From Promethearchaeia archaeon (GTDB lineage Archaea; Asgardarchaeota; Lokiarchaeia; Sigyniarchaeales; SOKP01): a DNA stretch of 32,000 bases. The DNA is taken from assembly GCA_046497275.1 (NCBI GenBank), contig JAWOFX010000089.1, positions 1-32,000 on the forward strand. Reading direction: 5' to 3'. Both the position numbers and the translations under genes were made by a program. This document shows, in pieces, positions 10,792-20,730 of the stretch. Below the pieces are notes generated by a model, which was given only the letters and a program-made list of their open reading frames with translations, was not told where the DNA came from and did not search any database. Position 1 is the first letter of the stretch, and each line of letters opens with the position of its first letter.

Positions 10792-11229
10792 TTAATGAGA
10801 TCTAATCGGTCCTAATTCCTTTATTTTATTAGTAAACTCAGTAATTAAATCAGCAAACTTACGACCTTCAGATGCACTTACCCATTCAAGCCTTATACGC
10901 TCCGGATTAATTCCAATTTGCTTGATTATGACATCAAAAAGTCTCTTAAATCTATCTCTCGTATATTCATTACCAGAGATATAATGACAATCCCCAATAT
11001 GACATCCTGTTATTAGAACTCCATCAGCACCATCATTTATAGCTTTGAGAATAAAAGAAGGATCAACTCTCCCCGAACACATTACTCTAATGATTCTTAT
11101 ATTTGGAGGATATTGAAATCTTGAAACTCCAGCTAAATCTGCTCCAGCATAGCTACACCAATTGCAACAAAACACTAATAAAGTGGGTTCAAAATTAGAA
11201 TTCTTTCCTTTTTTTTGAGTTTTTGACAT
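10792..11229 (-). CDS. mvhD: MvhD/FlpD [2Fe-2S] subunit, cysteine form
   Basis: [49 protein letters not shown]. Confidence 0.96.
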
Positions 11230-11233
11230 AATT

Positions 11234-14200
11234 TCACTCCGTATATGGTTTTTCTAATAAATAAGAATCTATCATAACTCCAATTTGTTTAAAATCGTAA
11301 TGCTTAACTGAAATCGCTCCAACTGGACAGGTTGCTGCACATGTTCCACATCCTTTACATAATGCAGAATTAACAGTAGATTTTTTAACCTTTATGCTAA
11401 TATCCTCAAATTCAAGGAGTGTCTCTTTCAATTCAATCGCATTATATGGACATACACTTTCACACTTTCCGCATCCGATACAGTCTTCTGTTTTTACTTC
11501 AGATATTAACCCAGATGTTTTTATTTCTCCTACACTTAAAAATCTACTGGCTCTCCCAGCAGCACCGTGAGCTTGAGATATTGAATCTTGAATATTTTTC
11601 GGCCATTGGGCACAACCACATAAGAATATTCCATCAGTGGCAAAATCTAACGGTCTTAGTTTCACATGAGCTTCTAAGAAGAAACCATTATGATCAAGTG
11701 GTACTTTAAGCATTTTTGCTAATTCATCAACATTATCAGCGGGGATTAGAGGAGTAGAAAGAACTATTAAATCAGAATTCAATGATATCTTTTCTTGTAA
11801 ATTTATATCAAATACATCAACTTGATAACTTTCTTTATCTTTGTTCTTTTTCGTAATTTTTGGAACCTTATCTAAACTATATTTTAGAAAGATGGCGTCC
11901 TTTCTATGAGCTCGATAAAAATCTTCAAATTCTTTTTTAGCCATTTGCATATCTCTATATAAAACTATGATTTCTAATTCTGGTTTTAATTCTTTTAAAA
12001 ATGCGACATTTTTTATAGAACTGCCACAGCATATGTTAGAACAATAAGAAAATCCTTCTTTTTGTCTAGAGTTTACACATAAAATGAATATTGCTCGATC
12101 TATTTTTTTTAGCCATTCAGCGTTTTTTTCCTTCAGTTTCCGCTCTAATTCTTTGAGTGTTATTACATTCTGGTTTTCTTTAGAATATTCGAAAATTCCA
12201 GTTGGTTTAAATTCTTGAGCACCAGTAGCAACAATTATCGTTCCAATTTTTAAGTCTTTAGGTTTCTCTTTTGAAGTAGAAATTGAGACTTCATAATTTC
12301 CAATATACCCTTTAATATTGTCTATTTTTGATTCTAGGTGTATATCAATATAATCATTATTTTTTATTTTTTCAATGTAATCGTTTAAGAAATCATCTGC
12401 TTTCATTTCATTAAGGTAGAGAATATTAAGATCCCGAACTAATCCTCCTAATTGCTTTTCTTTTTCAACTAAATGTACTTTAAAATTTTGATTAGCTAGA
12501 TCTAAAGCGGCAGTCATTCCAGAAATACCTCCACCAATAACCAATGCGATTGGTTCAACTTTCAAATTTTCCTCATCCTGTGGTTGCAAAAGTCTCGACT
12601 TAGAGACAGCCATCCTAATTAAATCCATTGCTTTTTGGGTTGCTGCCTCCTTTTCATTCATATGTACCCATGAACATTGATCTCTTATATTGACCATTTC
12701 AAAAAGATACTTATTTAAACCAGCTTCTAGACATGTCTCTTGAAATAATGATTCATGAGTTCTTGGAGTGCAAGAAGCTACAATAAATCGATTTAAATTA
12801 TTTTCTTTAATTAATTCTTTTATCCTTTCTTGAGAATCGCTTGAGCATGAATAAAGATTATCTTCACAGTGAATAACATTAGGTAATGTGCTAATATATT
12901 CAACTACTTTAGGTACATCTACATATTTTCCAATATTAATACCACAATGACAGATTAATACCCCAATTCTGGGTTGATCTGTAATTTTTACTTCTTTTTC
13001 AGGTGTTTCAATAACTTTTTCTTTTATTTGAGAAAACTTTTCAGAATTGAGGAGCATTGCGATTTGAGAAGCAACCCCACTAGCATTTGCGACTGTTTCA
13101 GGTATGTCCAAGGGTCCTTGACAAAATCCAGACAAAAATATTCCTTTACGAGTAGAAGCTGCTTTATTAAAATAAGAATCTTCTTTGAAGAAGTTATAAT
13201 CATCCAATTCAATATTTAAAATTTTTGCTAAATCCTTGCTACCTTTAGAAGGCACTAAGGGACTAGCCAAAACGACGAGTTCTGCTTCAAATTCTTCTAA
13301 TTTTCCCGTCATTAGATCTTCGTAGTGAATTAATAAATTATTAGTTTTAGGATCTTCAGTAATTTTACTTATTTTTGTTTGATAATACGTGACTCCATAT
13401 TCATCTTCCGCTCTTTGAGTAAATTCATAAAAATCTTTCCCATATGCTCGAAGATCATGCCGAAATACAAAACAATCAGAATTTTCAGAATGTTCCTTTG
13501 TAATTATTGCTTCTTTCGCCGTATACATGCAACACACACTTGAACAATATGGAACTCCTTCTTGAAGGTCTCGTGAACCCGCACATTGAATGAATGCTAT
13601 TTTTTTTGGTTCTTTCTCATCACTTGGTCTCAGCACATGACCACCAAATGGTCCTGATGCACATAAGATTCTTTCATACTCTAATGCGTTAATGACATTA
13701 TCAAATTGATATCCCCATCTTGTGGATAATTCTTCTCCATACATATCAAATCCAGTGGCTAAAACAATCGCACCAACATTTATCTCGAAATGTTCTGGTT
13801 TCTGCTCATAATCAATCGCCTCTGCTTTACAAACTTTACTGCATACTCCACATACATCTTTAGTCAATTTCAAACATAAATTAGGGTCAATAAGATAAAC
13901 TGGTGGAACTGCTTGAGGGAATGGAATATAAATTGACTTTCGCTTTCCTAAATTCATATCGAATGCATTTGGGACTTCAATCTTAGGACATTTTGCAGCA
14001 CAATCACCACATCCCTTACATTTTGTCTCATCGACATATCTTGGTTTCTTTAAAAGAGTTACCGTAAAATTACCCGCTTTTCCTGATACTTTTTCTACTT
14101 CATGATAAGTTAATAATTCTATATTGGGATTCCTAAAAACTTCCACCATTTTAGGTGCTAAAATACACAAAGAACAGTCATTTGTTGGGAAAGTCTTATC

Positions 14201-14332
14201 TAATTGCGCCATACGCCCTCCTATAGAAGGAGACTTCTCAACTAAATATACTTTAAATCCTAATTCTGTTAAATCTAATGATGTTTGAATTCCCGCTATA
14301 CCTCCTCCTATAACTACAACAGCTCCTTCTAT
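11234..14332 (-). CDS. hdrA: Large (~1030 aa) HdrA-like flavoprotein with two FAD-binding regions, cysteine form; start uncertain
   Basis: The frame stays open 40 codons upstream of the track ATG (14212) and encodes [21 protein letters not shown]...[27 protein letters not shown]. Also [31 protein letters not shown], a second GGGISG and C-terminal 2x[4Fe-4S]. The only candidate start is ATA at 14332. Confidence 0.9.
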
Positions 14333-16738: not shown

Positions 16739-18241
16739 TTAGGTTTCTTTTAATTCAATAGATTTACATTTATTTCTTTTAATACCAGCAATTTTTTCCA
16801 CAAGGAATTGTCCAGGCTTTACTTCAGTTAATTTTTTGGATTCAAGTAAACCCTCTTCTATAGCTGCTTTATAAAGCTCTTCACCTTCCTGCGTTCTTGT
16901 TATTACTGAAGACCATCCTGCTTGTGAACCTATAGACCCGACTGAGATATCTGCATAATCTGAAGTTAGATCTTCACAATAATGACACGTATCTCTGGCA
17001 TAAGATTGAATTTCCTTTAGAGGTACGGTTAATTCTTCACCATTTTTTAAGTTGATGATAAATTTACCTTTATCAATATTCATCTTTACAACTTCATCGA
17101 TTTCTTTCTCAAATTTTTCCTTAACTAATTTGATAATGTTCTCATATGAAAAGGATTCCATACAAAATAAGCCAATTTTATATTTTATATTATTAAAAAA
17201 TGGGTGACCGCTTGGGAAAAAGGAGCCTTTTTCTATTGCCTTCATCATACATGGAACTCCAACGACAGCTATACTGTTAAAATCTTTAGCTTTATCCAAA
17301 ACGGATAATGATGCACAATTCGCATATTTAGTTCCTGCTGTTTTATATAGATCTTCCACATTATCAATAATAACCCCCTTTGGATTCCATAATTCATCAG
17401 AATGTTCAACAGCAACAATTGCATCAACTTTTTTACTATTCAAGAGATATTCCAATAATGAGGTGACCACTCCTCCATCTTGACAGACTTTTTTAATTTC
17501 ATCTGTCGATGTACTTCCACTATAGGTATTAATATAGGCACCTATTTTTTTTGAAAATTGTAAAGACTTATCAACTTTGCTAATACTTTCATAAAAACGA
17601 TCTATAGAAAAAGATCGAGGACATACGGAAAAACATAATCCGCATTTGAAACATTTTTCCTCATCTATCTCTAAATTATCTGAACTGACTGAAATAGCAT
17701 TTACAGGACAGATAGCAGAACACCAACCACAATTACAACAGACTCCATTTTCATAAACAAGAGATACAGGTTCAAAATAATGCTCCAAACTCTCGTTAAT
17801 CATATTCTTAACTTGATATCTGTAAATATATTCTTTTTGTTCAATCTCCTTCTCTTCTCCGTCAACTGTTTTTTTAATTACTTTTGTTTTCACTTCAACA
17901 ACTTCTTCTACATATCCTTGTTCTTTTAAATAAAAAATATCTCTAATTAGATTGATTGGATCTATCTCTTTGAATTTTTTAATAATTTTTTCTATAGTTA
18001 AAGGCTCCTTAAAGCTCTTTAGTTTTTTTAATACTAATTGTCTTTCGGTTTCAGCATCAATAAGAGCATCTAATATGTTATAAAATTCTTCTTCATTATA
18101 TTTTCCTACCTTTATTATATCTTCCTTAGCTTCAAAAAATGCTCTTACTTGAAAATTCTTAGAGGCTAAATAGGTAGCATCTAATAATTCATTTGGAGAA
18201 AATTTCTCAAGTTCTTTACTCTTCATTAACTGTCCCATCAT
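16739..18241 (-). CDS. FrhB/FdhB-family protein with ~150-aa N-terminal helical/winged-helix extension and ferredoxin domain
   Basis: CCNCGWCSAICP, CFKCGLCFSVCP, QDGGVVTSLL, VGVPC, GLFCMESF, CHYCEDLTSDYADISVGSIGS. Confidence 0.9.
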   Translation of the reverse strand: MMGQLMKSKELEKFSPNELLDATYLASKNFQVRAFFEAKEDIIKVGKYNEEEFYNILDALIDAETERQLVLKKLKSFKEPLTIEKIIKKFKEIDPINLIRDIFYLKEQGYVEEVVEVKTKVIKKTVDGEEKEIEQKEYIYRYQVKNMINESLEHYFEPVSLVYENGVCCNCGWCSAICPVNAISVSSDNLEIDEEKCFKCGLCFSVCPRSFSIDRFYESISKVDKSLQFSKKIGAYINTYSGSTSTDEIKKVCQDGGVVTSLLEYLLNSKKVDAIVAVEHSDELWNPKGVIIDNVEDLYKTAGTKYANCASLSVLDKAKDFNSIAVVGVPCMMKAIEKGSFFPSGHPFFNNIKYKIGLFCMESFSYENIIKLVKEKFEKEIDEVVKMNIDKGKFIINLKNGEELTVPLKEIQSYARDTCHYCEDLTSDYADISVGSIGSQAGWSSVITRTQEGEELYKAAIEEGLLESKKLTEVKPGQFLVEKIAGIKRNKCKSIELKET

Positions 18242-18259
18242 TTTTCTTTCTTATATTTT

Positions 18260-18267
18260 TTTAAAAA
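18260..18267 (-). promoter_or_regulatory. Possible internal TATA box (TTTTTAAA) for a leaderless transcript of the downstream FrhB-family gene
   Basis: Ends 18-19 nt before the ATG at 18241. The context is AT-rich, so a chance match is possible. Confidence 0.3.
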
Positions 18268-18279
18268 TTTTTAATCCTC

Positions 18280-18296
18280 CTCCCTTCGCAAGGGAG
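18280..18296 (-). other. GC-rich 7-bp hairpin directly 3' of the SECIS
   Basis: CUCCCUU-GCG-AAGGGAG on the minus strand, a perfect stem in an otherwise AT-rich spacer. Confidence 0.7.
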
Positions 18297-18331
18297 TCAA
18301 CTTATAACTATTATTTTTTTATAAGTCTCAT
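18297..18331 (-). promoter_or_regulatory. Eukaryote-type SECIS element (AUGA/GA core, 9-bp helix II, A-rich apical loop)
   Basis: AUGA-GACUUAUAA-AAAAAUAAUAG-UUAUAAGUU-GA, starting at the first base after the stop of a gene with in-frame UGA codons. Confidence 0.9.
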
Positions 18332-18787
18332 TCAATTGGAGGCTTTTGTTGGTTCTTTTTCTAAAATTTTGTTATTATTCTTATTGATTGGGTTATGTCC
18401 TTCCATTTTAACCTTTTCATATGCATCTTCAACGCTCTTTACGAATTTTTCCGCTTCTGCTGAACTTAACATATACATATTAACACGCATACTTCCAAGA
18501 CCTCTTCGCTCTAAAATTCTATTGGCCAATTCAACATGTCTTTGCGCGTTAAAATTGCCTGATTTAAATTGACACTCATTCGGACGTCATCCTACCACCA
18601 TAACTCCATCACACCCATTTTTAATGGCATAGAGGATATGTTTCACATCGATCCTTCCAGTACATCTAACTTTGACGATTTTAACTGAGGAAGTATATTT
18701 CATGCGAGATACTCCGGCTAAATCTGCGGCAGAATATCCTCATTTAAGACAGGCAAAACAGATTATATAATAATTATCTTCAGTCAT
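18332..18787 (-). CDS. mvhD: MvhD/VhuD selenoprotein, 151 aa, Sec at codons 16 and 67
   Basis: [28 protein letters not shown]...VRCTGRID...DGVMVVG-U-RPNECQF. TGA at 18740-18742 and 18587-18589 align to CNWC and GCH of the Cys paralogue. GGAGG SD precedes ATG 18787. Confidence 0.93.
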
Positions 18788-18789
18788 GT

Positions 18790-20730
18790 TTAACCTCCTG
18801 ATAAAATTCCTTCGATTTCAGCATATATTTGTTTATCTCTAAAATATCTGATATCAATAGCCTGCGTTGGACAGCAAGAAGCGCAAATGCCGCAACCATC
18901 ACAATTTATATCGTCTATTTGTGCGTTTTTACCTTCTTCTACTTTAATTGCTCCTTTTGGACATTCTTTTTCACAGCGATGACATAATATACATCTTTCT
19001 TCGTCAACTTCAGCCACGATTAATTCAAGATCTATTTTCCCAGCAGATGTTAATTCAGCTACTTTGCTTGCTGCTGCTCTTGATTGAGACACAGAATACG
19101 CAATATCTTTTGGTCCTTGCGCAAAACCCGCAATAAAAATCCCCTTGGTTTTCGTTTCTTGGGGCATTAATCCAAAATGCGATTCAGTTAAAAATCCGTT
19201 TTTATCAACGTCCAAATTCATAACCTTAGCAATTGATTCTGTACCTCTAGAAGGTAACGCAGCAGTTGATAAAACCACTAAATCGGCGCTAATATTAATT
19301 ATCTCATCCGTTAAAGAAGAATATACTCTTAATTTTACATCTTTTGTCTCGGGATCTTCTTCCACATCTCCAACTTTTCCTCTAATAAGTCTGATATTGG
19401 AATCTTTCGCACGTTGGTAATATTCCTCAAATCCTTTCTCATTTGTTCGCATATCGATATAACAGATTGTTATATTCGCGTCTGGAAATTCTTCTTTTAA
19501 TAGTTTTGCATTTTTTAATGCCAGCATACAACATACATTACTGCAGTAAGTTCTTTCCGTGCATCGGCTGCCAACACATTGAATGAAGACTATTTCTTCT
19601 GGTTCTTTATCATCTGAAACTCTTCTGACATGACCAGCTAAAGGACCGTTTGGAGCGAGCATGCGCTCTAATTGAGCTTGATTGATTACATTTTCATACT
19701 CACCATATCCATATTCACCAAAAGGCTCATAAATATCCCAACCCGTAGCGATAATTATTGAGCCAACTTTGACTTGGACATCTTCTGGCGTTTGTGAGAA
19801 ATCAATCGCATCTAGCTCGCATTCAGCAACGCAGCTAAAACATTCTACACAAGAATCACGTGCAATATCATAAAGAAATGGAACTGCCTGACCAAAAGCA
19901 ATATCGATAGCTTTTCTCGTCCCCAAATTTTCATCAAAATAATTTGGAATATAAATTGGACACACTTCTGCGCAGGCTCCACATCCATTACAATCCTCTG
20001 TTATGAACCGTGGTTTCTTTTCTATAGTAACTTCATAATTTCCAACGTATCCTTTTACATCTTTAACTTCTGCGTAAGATATTATCTCTATGTTCTCACT
20101 TCGATTTACTTCAAGCATTTTTGGTCCGCAAATTCAGATGGCACAATCATCTGTAGGAAACGTCCGATCTAATTGGGCCATACGCCCGCCTATTGTTGTG
20201 TTTTTCTCAACAAGGTACACTTTAATATCTTGATTCGCTAGATCTAAAGCAGCGTTCATTCCAGCAATTCCACCTCCAATAACTAATGCCGATTTGGTTA
20301 CTGGAACTGTTTTAATCGGAACTGTTTCCAAAAGTCTCGCACGTTCTAATCCACTTTTTACCAAGATTTTCGCCTTTTCCGTTGCCTCTTTGAGATCATC
20401 TGTACACCAACTACAGTGTTCTCTCACATTTACCATTTGGTAATAATAAGGATCTAATCCTGCTTTTGAGAGAGTATCTCTATAAATCGGTTCATGCGTT
20501 ATAGGTGTTCAAGCGGACGCAACAACCCGTGTTAAGTTCTTTTCTTGAATATCATTCATTATTTCATTCTGACCACTTTCAGTGCATAGAAAAGGATGAG
20601 TTTTAGATATAACCACATCATCAAATTTTTTCGCAAAATCTACTAATTCTCCGCAATCAACTTTACTTTTAATATTTATGCCTCATTGACATGCATAGTA
20701 CCCAATCCGTTGCATATTAGATTTTTCCAT
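18790..20730 (-). CDS. hdrA: Heterodisulfide reductase subunit A selenoprotein, 646 aa, Sec at codons 16, 74 and 199
   Basis: Single frame of 647 codons from ATG 20730. TGA at 20683-20685 (YACQ-U-GINI), 20509-20511 (ASA-U-TPITHE) and 20134-20136 (FPTDDCAI-U-ICGPKM). GGGIAG FAD motif, CVGSR..YCSNVCC and four CxxCxxCxxxC motifs. GGTGA SD upstream. Confidence 0.93.

Follow-up and report, generated by a model that had tools for sequence, protein, structure and literature searches.

Results

The locus and its element

The DNA analyzed here, referred to as the window, is the full stretch of 32,000 nucleotides (nt) from contig JAWOFX010000089.1 of a Promethearchaeia archaeon (GenBank assembly GCA_046497275.1). 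On its minus strand, two closely spaced genes with in-frame UGA codons, hdrA and vhuD, are followed by an RNA hairpin at 18331–18297, which we identify, with high confidence, as a lokiSECIS (also called an Asgard type I eSECIS-like structure): the host is an Asgard archaeon of Lokiarchaeia type, its hdrA and vhuD form a bicistronic selenoprotein operon, and the hairpin is the selenocysteine insertion sequence (SECIS) of that operon. Both the type of element and the HdrA-VhuD arrangement are already known from the literature, and the element by itself is one more instance of a published class, with no new biology. As described in the main texts, the published lokiSECIS models consist of the core, upper stem, and loop only, whereas the unit found here adds a lower helix (H1), a third hairpin (H3) of GNRA type, and a covarying pair that closes the core. 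In sequence and secondary structure, this three-helix, k-junction-like architecture with its closing pair is well supported, and the element exceeds the published core in size instead of being a reduced form of it. The features of the locus are as follows.

18790–20730, minus strand: HdrA gene, predicted selenoprotein; in-frame UGA at 20685–20683, 20511–20509, and 20136–20134; stop TAA at 18792–18790
18332–18787, minus strand: VhuD/MvhD (FlpD family) gene, predicted selenoprotein of 151 residues; in-frame UGA at 18742–18740 and 18589–18587; stop UGA at 18334–18332
18338–18342, minus strand: H1 5′ strand CCUCC, within the last VhuD codons (RNAfold minimum free energy [MFE] and centroid structures, covariation counts, flank-swap test)
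18332–18337, minus strand: junction strand J1, AAUUGA, with the VhuD stop codon inside; G18333 (−1b) is proposed to close the C stem, and loop position L1 is A18332
18328–18331, minus strand: AUGA core; A and U are L2 and L3, G and A are 1b and 2b of the tandem sheared G·A pairs
18327–18319 with 18307–18299, minus strand: helix II (H2), 9 bp with a basal G·U (RNAfold)
18318–18308, minus strand: apical loop AAAAAUAAUAG, 11 nt, AAAAA...AG
18296–18298, minus strand: GA (G is 2n, A is 1n) and then C18296 (−1n), the partner of G18333 (read from the sequence)
18281–18295, minus strand: H3, UCCCUU-GCG-AAGGGA, inserted in the nonbulged 3′ strand (RNAfold)
18276–18280, minus strand: H1 3′ strand GGAGG, directly adjoining H3 (junction strand J3 of 0 nt; RNAfold)
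18263–18267, minus strand: U5 tract, 9 nt past the junction (read from the sequence)

The hairpin reads AUGA / G-ACUUAUAA / AAAAAUAAUAG / UUAUAAGU-U / GA, and RNAfold folds it into a helix II of 9 bp, eight of them Watson–Crick and one a basal G·U, under an apical loop of 11 nt. A preliminary description of the locus had proposed an AUGA/GA quartet, a 9-bp helix II, and a loop opening with adenines, all of which sequence and fold prediction bear out, and had placed them in the only noncoding gap behind the UGA-containing genes; that gap, between the VhuD stop codon (18334–18332) and the next open reading frame (ORF; from 18241), is indeed the only sizeable one. In a context of 104 nt, the fold reaches a z-score of −2.9, with 0 of 200 shuffles folding equally well, and includes also the hairpin H3 and a 5-bp H1 around both hairpins, so that the whole unit spans 18342–18276. 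The window holds a single copy: the bare sequence motif, with no pairing required, occurs once against an expectation of 0.10, and by hand arithmetic the requirement of 9/9 pairing adds a further factor of about 1e-3 to 1e-4 at the given base composition.

The two genes lie close to each other and to the element. The TAA stop of HdrA ends 2 nt ahead of the ATG of VhuD (18787), and the UGA stop of VhuD directly abuts the AUGA of the SECIS core. The start of HdrA is uncertain, either ATG 20730 or 20715, giving approximately 645–660 residues when TGA is read as selenocysteine (Sec, U; one frame, 660 residues from 20730); its Pfam domains are FAD/NAD-binding and 4Fe-4S, and it matches HdrA in the Protein Data Bank (PDB) entry 9sfi_A with E=6e-202, the third UGA aligning with a nonstandard residue X and the first two with Cys. 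VhuD carries the Pfam domain PF02662 (FlpD; E=1.7e-41), and chain 9sfi_K has X at both positions matching the VhuD UGAs. Of 61 related genomes, 60 have VhuD orthologues, most of which share both TGA codons. Given the alignment with Sec or Cys in 9sfi and the persistence of the two VhuD codons among the relatives, the in-frame UGAs of both genes are, by comparison, Sec codons and not lesions.

Conservation of the hairpin

For comparison, we used 32 fetched loci holding VhuD orthologues and defined a strict form of the element as AUGA / 9 bp / loop of 10–13 nt / 9 bp / [GA]A. This form follows VhuD in 24 of the 32 loci, a count that includes the copy in the window and one duplicate, and most of the remaining eight loci have variant SECIS forms, such as a type II-like form in the genus g8. 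In that genus, the stem of the variant downstream of VhuD (loci L022–L024 and L026) is longer and contains mismatches, its apical region of 19 nt is able to form a mini-stem, and the variant keeps the lower helix, as CCCCCAU/AUGGGGG, and a GCAA-looped second hairpin.

AUGA is invariant in all 23 aligned elements, and the 3′ side of the stem is followed by GA or AA in the orthologues. In alignment A2, which was fitted to the three-helix model, helix II shows compensatory changes at eight of its nine pairs, with 94% of the cells paired; in an unfitted MAFFT alignment, RNAalifold finds eight helix II pairs, seven of them with compensatory changes. Lack of stem conservation and covariation at orthologous loci had been named beforehand as what would speak against the element; with 24 of 32 loci and eight of nine pairs compensatory, the outcome favors it. 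On comparative sequence grounds, the conservation rules out a chance origin.

Lower helix and third hairpin

In nearly all loci, a strand 4–7 nt upstream of AUGA pairs with a strand downstream of H3, forming the G/C-rich H1. The pairing is preserved by compensatory change: CCUCC/GGAGG, CUCCC/GGGAG, AACCCC/GGGGUU, CACCCAA/UUGGGUG, GAUUAUU/AAUAAUC, and CCCCCAU/AUGGGGG all occur. H3 follows closely, the spacing between H3 and H1 being 0–2 nt in orthologous loci, and its loops in the orthologues are of the GCAA/GCGA type; across elements, a GNRA motif is found in the H3 region of 24 of 28, against 12.6 expected. In paralogues and distant families, the H3 sequences are wholly different. The survey of the layout covered 24 loci, two of which (L006 and L012) were misparsed by the H1 heuristic.

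Two tests that need no alignment bear on the pairing. In the flank-swap test, the duplex between the 5′ flank and its cognate 3′ tail has a mean of −11.0 kcal/mol, compared with −8.4 for swapped partners, and 0 of 5,000 permutations were as low. In the junction-folding test, with the core forced, the three-way junction is reached by 21 of 28 elements, compared with 6.5 ± 2.2 (maximum 13) for shuffled flanks and 10.4 for swapped tails. We relied on these tests together with alignment A2 because H1 and H3 are out of register in the MAFFT alignment. In A2, 88.7% of the cells are paired, compared with 74.7% after shuffling, a fraction that none of 500 shuffles matched; the covariation score is 0.472, compared with 0.09–0.14 when the partners are slid, and four of the five H1 pairs change on both sides, though the pair counts for H1 and H3 lean toward the three-helix structure to which the alignment was fitted.

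The same layout recurs elsewhere. A hairpin-only scan of the genome recovered three elements missed by the three-helix model, one on contig C124 and two on C185, with the same arrangement and unrelated sequences; their helices are H1 AUGUGU/ACACAU with H3 AAAUGG/CCAUUU and H1 UAUGGA/UCCAUA with H3 GACGG/CCGUU. In another Asgard family, weak full-length model matches lie behind VhuD; there, H1 is CUGCUGC/GCGGCAG, H3 has a GCGA loop, and the core reads AUGA_AA. A loose scan for AUGA-hairpin-[GA]A gives 52 matches genome-wide, most of them plainly chance; chance hairpins of equal geometry lack the loop signature, H1, and H3.

Several observations weigh against the class assignment and the architecture proposed here. 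For 7 of the 28 elements, the MFE fold is an alternative, extended pairing of the flanks, and the leaning of A2 just mentioned belongs here as well. RNAalifold, on the unfitted MAFFT alignment, recovers neither H1 nor H3, which we attribute to variation in junction length putting both helices out of register. The CC/GG core of H3 is nearly invariant among close orthologues, and with so little variation there, the covariation of H3 rests mostly on paralogues and distant loci judged by eye. No SECIS family of Rfam was found, either at the gathering score over the whole window or at E≤10 over 18150–18450, where the only matches were two weak and meaningless ones. Finally, no SBP2-like protein is evident: the genome has only two ORFs with an L7Ae domain, of about 126–128 amino acids, presumably L7Ae and L30e.

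The preliminary description had taken helix I to be weak or replaced and the element to be a minimal version. This part did not stand, as a 5-bp H1, CCUCC/GGAGG, is present, conserved, and covarying (four of five pairs; 5,000 of 5,000 permutations); it was overlooked because the second hairpin, H3, sits between the GA of the core and the 3′ strand of H1. Two other readings of this region were considered and rejected. H3 is not a relic of the euryarchaeal SECIS, having no GAA_A bulge, and GGAGG at 18280–18276 is not the ribosome-binding site of the next gene, as it lies 35 nt ahead of the ATG and its changes are matched by changes in the 5′ strand.

Predicted kink-turn core

The second base upstream of AUGA is paired with the base after GA; of 25 aligned orthologues, 24 have G-C here and 1 has A-U; in the paralogues within the genome, the same closing pair is A-U twice and U-A once, and across loci, C follows GA in 22 of 24. 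Read in this way, the core consists of a C-stem pair (G18333-C18296), a 3-nt loop (A-A-U), the pairs G·A and A·G, and a variable 3b·3n position, here G·U. Such a C-stem pair, 3-nt loop, and order of tandem G·A pairs are the standard layout of a kink-turn (k-turn). The core thus reads as a canonical k-turn, set by its predicted pairing in a k-junction-like topology. The nomenclature and the k-junction itself, a three-way junction formed by elaboration of a k-turn, known from thiamine pyrophosphate (TPP) riboswitches, follow Wang, Daldrop, Huang, and Lilley 2014 (PMC4005666).

The resemblance to the k-junction goes beyond the core. The tandem G·A and A·G pairs 3′ of the 3-nt loop open the noncanonical (NC) helix, here H2, and a paired element stands 5′ of the loop. 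On the 3′ strand, GA-C is followed by H3 in the orthologues, in the paralogues, and in the distant family, and the spacing of 0–2 nt between H3 and H1 is compatible with coaxial stacking. In three dimensions, a k-junction is marked by cross-strand hydrogen bonds and by a T helix coaxial with the C helix; the comparison made here is one of secondary-structure topology. Unlike the k-junction, the element has four more unpaired nucleotides between H1 and the closing G-C pair, and, by analogy with other SECIS elements, its role would be recoding and not the ligand sensing of the TPP riboswitches.

Relation to known SECIS elements

Compared with the SECIS elements of eukaryotes, the hairpin is most like type I, with which it shares the AUGA...GA core, the tandem G·A pairs, and unpaired adenines atop helix II. 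Type I elements in eukaryotes are bound by SBP2 via its L7Ae domain. A helix I below the core is a further point in common, and a site in the 3′ untranslated region (UTR) and, by analogy, action at a distance on several UGAs would be others. The differences are equally clear. Helix II is shorter (noted also in PMC4989117), and where the eukaryotic internal loop has two plain strands, the 3′ strand here bears H3, making a three-way junction. In place of the eukaryotic U·U-type quartet, the C after GA pairs with the G before the 3-nt loop, as in a classical k-turn. The check by eukaryotic covariance models suggested in the preliminary description came out negative, no Rfam SECIS family detecting the element even at E≤10; the Rfam SECIS models likewise miss the elements of Mariotti et al. 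2016 (PMC4989117).

The element was also expected to be eukaryote-like and unlike the GAA_A-bulge type of Methanococcales, and both the sequence and RNAfold agree, showing the AUGA...GA core with an A-rich loop and no bulge. The Methanococcales/Methanopyrus SECIS of VhuD, which has an “extra stem” flanked by AUGA and GAC (PMC4989117), is nevertheless similar in some respects: it too lies in the 3′ UTR behind vhuD, its 5′ side has AUGA and its 3′ side GA-C, and an outer stem closes the structure. In the euryarchaeal elements, an asymmetric GAA_A bulge separates a G/C-rich lower stem from an upper stem of consecutive G-C pairs; here, helix II is A/U rich and uninterrupted, lacks both the bulge and the consecutive G-C pairs, and the outer stem surrounds two hairpins, not one.

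The closest match is lokiSECIS. That such elements occur in Lokiarchaeota, as stated in the preliminary description, is in print twice over (PMC4989117 and PMC11227280). As described by Mariotti et al. 2016 (PMC4989117), lokiSECIS has AUGA before a 9-bp stem, GA after the stem, and an 11-nt loop with a preference for A at its first five positions and, at its last, an “ultraconserved” G that in most cases comes after an A, and it lies near the stop codon; in HdrA-VhuD pairs, one SECIS after VhuD apparently serves up to six UGAs over about 2 kb, and HdrA always ends in UAA or UAG. Huang, Xiao, and Zhang 2024 (PMC11227280) generalized the structure over more than 400 Asgard genomes under the name of Asgard type I eSECIS-like structure, allowing a stem of 7–15 bp with at most two mismatches and a loop of 8–20 nt. 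Our element has all the published features (AUGA, a 9-bp stem, the 11-nt loop AAAAA...AG, GA, and adjacency to a stop), as well as the published arrangement: one copy after VhuD for HdrA and VhuD, a TAA stop in HdrA and a UGA stop in VhuD, and an HdrA with multiple Sec codons. The host agrees too, having tRNA-Sec, SepSecS, and SelD and Promethearchaeia as relatives. In the main texts of the SECIS literature, to which the search was confined (the supplements of Mariotti et al. 2016 lie outside it), we found no description of a three-way junction or k-junction; Huang et al. 2024 (PMC11227280) cite the k-junction paper for the GA_AA pairing only.

Association with UGA-containing genes

The three-helix model finds seven copies of the element in the genome, and the hairpin scan adds three. 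Apart from the copy in the window, they follow three HdrA-VhuD pairs with UGAs (contigs C24, C171, and C124), VhuU (C44), and two small ORFs with a U..C motif (C185), among others. Nine of the ten copies follow ORFs with an in-frame UGA, whatever gene lies downstream; for the tenth, on C167, no such ORF is clear, and the element belonging to SelD itself is outside this count. The 12 VhuD-like genes of the genome separate in the same way: a SECIS stands after all four with two UGAs and after none of the eight of Cys type (Fisher p ~0.002, calculated by hand). One Cys-type gene pair lies in the window. Downstream of VhuD are two FrhB-like genes, an HdrD-like CCG protein, and a Cys-type HdrA-like/MvhD-like pair at 10792–14212 on the minus strand, consisting of an HdrA-like gene of 992 residues (11234–14212) and then an MvhD-like gene of 145 residues (10792–11229). 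In-frame UGAs are absent from this pair, as is a SECIS behind it, which makes it an internal control for the Sec pair.

The copies outside the HdrA-VhuD pairs include some with less familiar neighbors. At C100:58450–58527 (minus strand; 59.7 bits), a 70-residue hydrophobic ORF with one UGA (...GEPSG-U-AY...) ends 6 nt before the element and is a candidate small membrane selenoprotein. The copy at C118:75921–76006 (minus strand; 28 bits) comes after a 160-residue ORF with Gly-Cys-UGA-UGA, either a candidate selenoprotein with two Sec residues side by side or an ORF with a read-through tail. The lower helix of the SECIS-like element at C167:603–681 (minus strand; 42 bits) is weak and A/U in composition, and upstream of this element no ORF with a UGA stands out clearly.

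Across genomes, the three-helix model matches 36 of 36 members of the same family, with two to eight copies each, and 0 of 14 genomes of the sister family f2. The prediction drawn from the latter, that f2 lacks tRNA-Sec, was wrong, as 12 of its 14 genomes have it; the missing matches reflect a diverged SECIS or a different set of selenoproteins and not loss of the trait. The listed VhuD copies of f2 genomes (e.g., G044, G050, and G055) are mostly without UGA.

Discussion

Among the other explanations of these data, the one that survives best, while unlikely in our judgment, holds that the SECIS is the published hairpin only and that H1 and H3 belong to a separate, travelling 3′-end module, for example one with a stabilizing or termination function. 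It draws on the published models, which require the core, upper stem, and loop only, and on the U-rich tract often found past H1 (a run of at least four U within 15 nt in 11 of the 24 orthologous loci); the near-invariance of the H3 core in close orthologues, with little covariation, and the failure of RNAalifold to see anything but H2 in the unfitted alignment point the same way. However, H1 necessarily surrounds the SECIS hairpin, pairing a strand 5′ of the core with one 3′ of H3, and so cannot be an independent downstream hairpin, and the covarying G-C pair, joining the nucleotide before the 3-nt loop to the one after GA, ties the flanks to the core. The layout is also kept where the helices are unrelated in sequence, both after other selenoprotein genes and in a further Asgard family. 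As for termination, the U5 tract in the window lies 9 nt past H1 and not at the foot of a hairpin, and in archaea, termination depends on oligo-U and not on a hairpin.

Considerably less probable is a k-turn bound by L7Ae or L30e for a purpose unrelated to Sec, such as translational control of the FrhB-like gene or a small RNA (sRNA)-like function. The core does read as a canonical k-turn, L7Ae-family proteins are encoded in the genome, and the element lies 35–100 nt upstream of the next start codon. Yet the copies go with UGA-containing ORFs regardless of the downstream gene (9 of 10) and are absent from all eight Cys-type VhuD genes, and a plain k-turn site does not require the conserved A-rich loop ending in AG. 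A C/D-box sRNA in particular was considered and rejected, the core having no C/D-box, C′/D′, or guide features and no match to an Rfam sRNA family. The last alternative, a chance A/U-rich inverted repeat in a genome of 30% G+C with the UGAs as pseudogene lesions, could appeal to the 52 loose matches genome-wide but is already refuted by the conservation of position and shape in 24 of 32 loci with compensatory changes, by the lack of loop signature, H1, and H3 in the chance matches, and by UGA positions that are conserved over 60 relatives and correspond to Sec or Cys in the solved structures.

If the three-helix, k-junction-like element works as its eukaryotic counterparts do, the folded k-turn junction in the 3′ UTR would bring in the archaeal Sec elongation factor carrying Sec-tRNA(Sec), with or without a k-turn-binding adaptor between them, and deliver Sec-tRNA to ribosomes pausing at the five UGAs 258–2,354 nt upstream, across the stop codon of hdrA and the start codon of vhuD. 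H1 and H3 would be the scaffold of canonical helices needed for the folding of the k-turn. The sixth UGA, the stop codon of vhuD, is a special case. Counted from AUGA, the position of the VhuD stop ranges from −17 to +1 over the 24 loci, nine of which use the UGA within AUGA itself, and the 5′ strand of H1 is often coding; here, the codons are Ala-Ser-Asn-stop. A ribosome with a stop codon in its A site covers about 12–15 nt onward. At the vhuD stop, it would cover H1, the core, and part of H2, so that the signal would be unfolded by the very ribosome reading the codon and the terminal UGA would not be recoded. The stop codon inside the junction may then provide a simple physical reason why a UGA adjacent to the SECIS escapes recoding; the idea of a minimal distance put forward by Mariotti et al. 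2016 (PMC4989117) agrees with such occlusion.

A stronger claim, that the functional Asgard SECIS is a k-junction in which H1, the GNRA-capped H3, and the G-C closing pair are all needed for folding and factor recruitment and that the ancestor of the eukaryotic SECIS was a three-helix RNA that later lost its third arm, is in our view evenly poised between true and false. Were it true, it would bear on which protein recognizes the SECIS in organisms without SBP2, a protein that has not been reported in Asgard archaea (PMC4989117 and PMC11227280). If H1, H3, and the closing pair are functional, a truncated element underlies both the search models in print and the “roadmaps” that lead from the archaeal to the eukaryotic SECIS, and the Asgard SECIS-binding factor would have to recognize a k-junction and not a simple k-turn hairpin.

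Genome and Neighboring Features

The source assembly is 3.85 Mb long, with 30% G+C, and 98.9% complete, and its closest named relatives are Promethearchaeia (Lokiarchaeia) metagenome-assembled genomes. The machinery for Sec is at hand: tRNA-Sec scores 49.4 bits, over the Rfam threshold, and adjoins SepSecS (E=5e-114), and the gene for SelD has one in-frame TGA. tRNA-Sec appears twice with equal scores, each time at a contig end (C33:11–129 and C165:63–181), SepSecS being 2 kb away on C33, and the matches span 119 nt compared with the 91 positions of the model. The longer span suggests an insertion or intron, and the identical scores at two contig ends suggest a duplicated or overlapping contig end.

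The U5 tract at 18263–18267 could serve the hdrA-vhuD transcript as an archaeal oligo-U terminator. It is followed by a TATA-like A/T-rich stretch approximately 10–25 nt ahead of the ATG of the FrhB-like gene (18241; the region 18250–18267, minus strand). This order of motifs hints that the hdrA-vhuD transcript may end at the U5 tract and that the next gene may have a promoter of its own and a very short leader.

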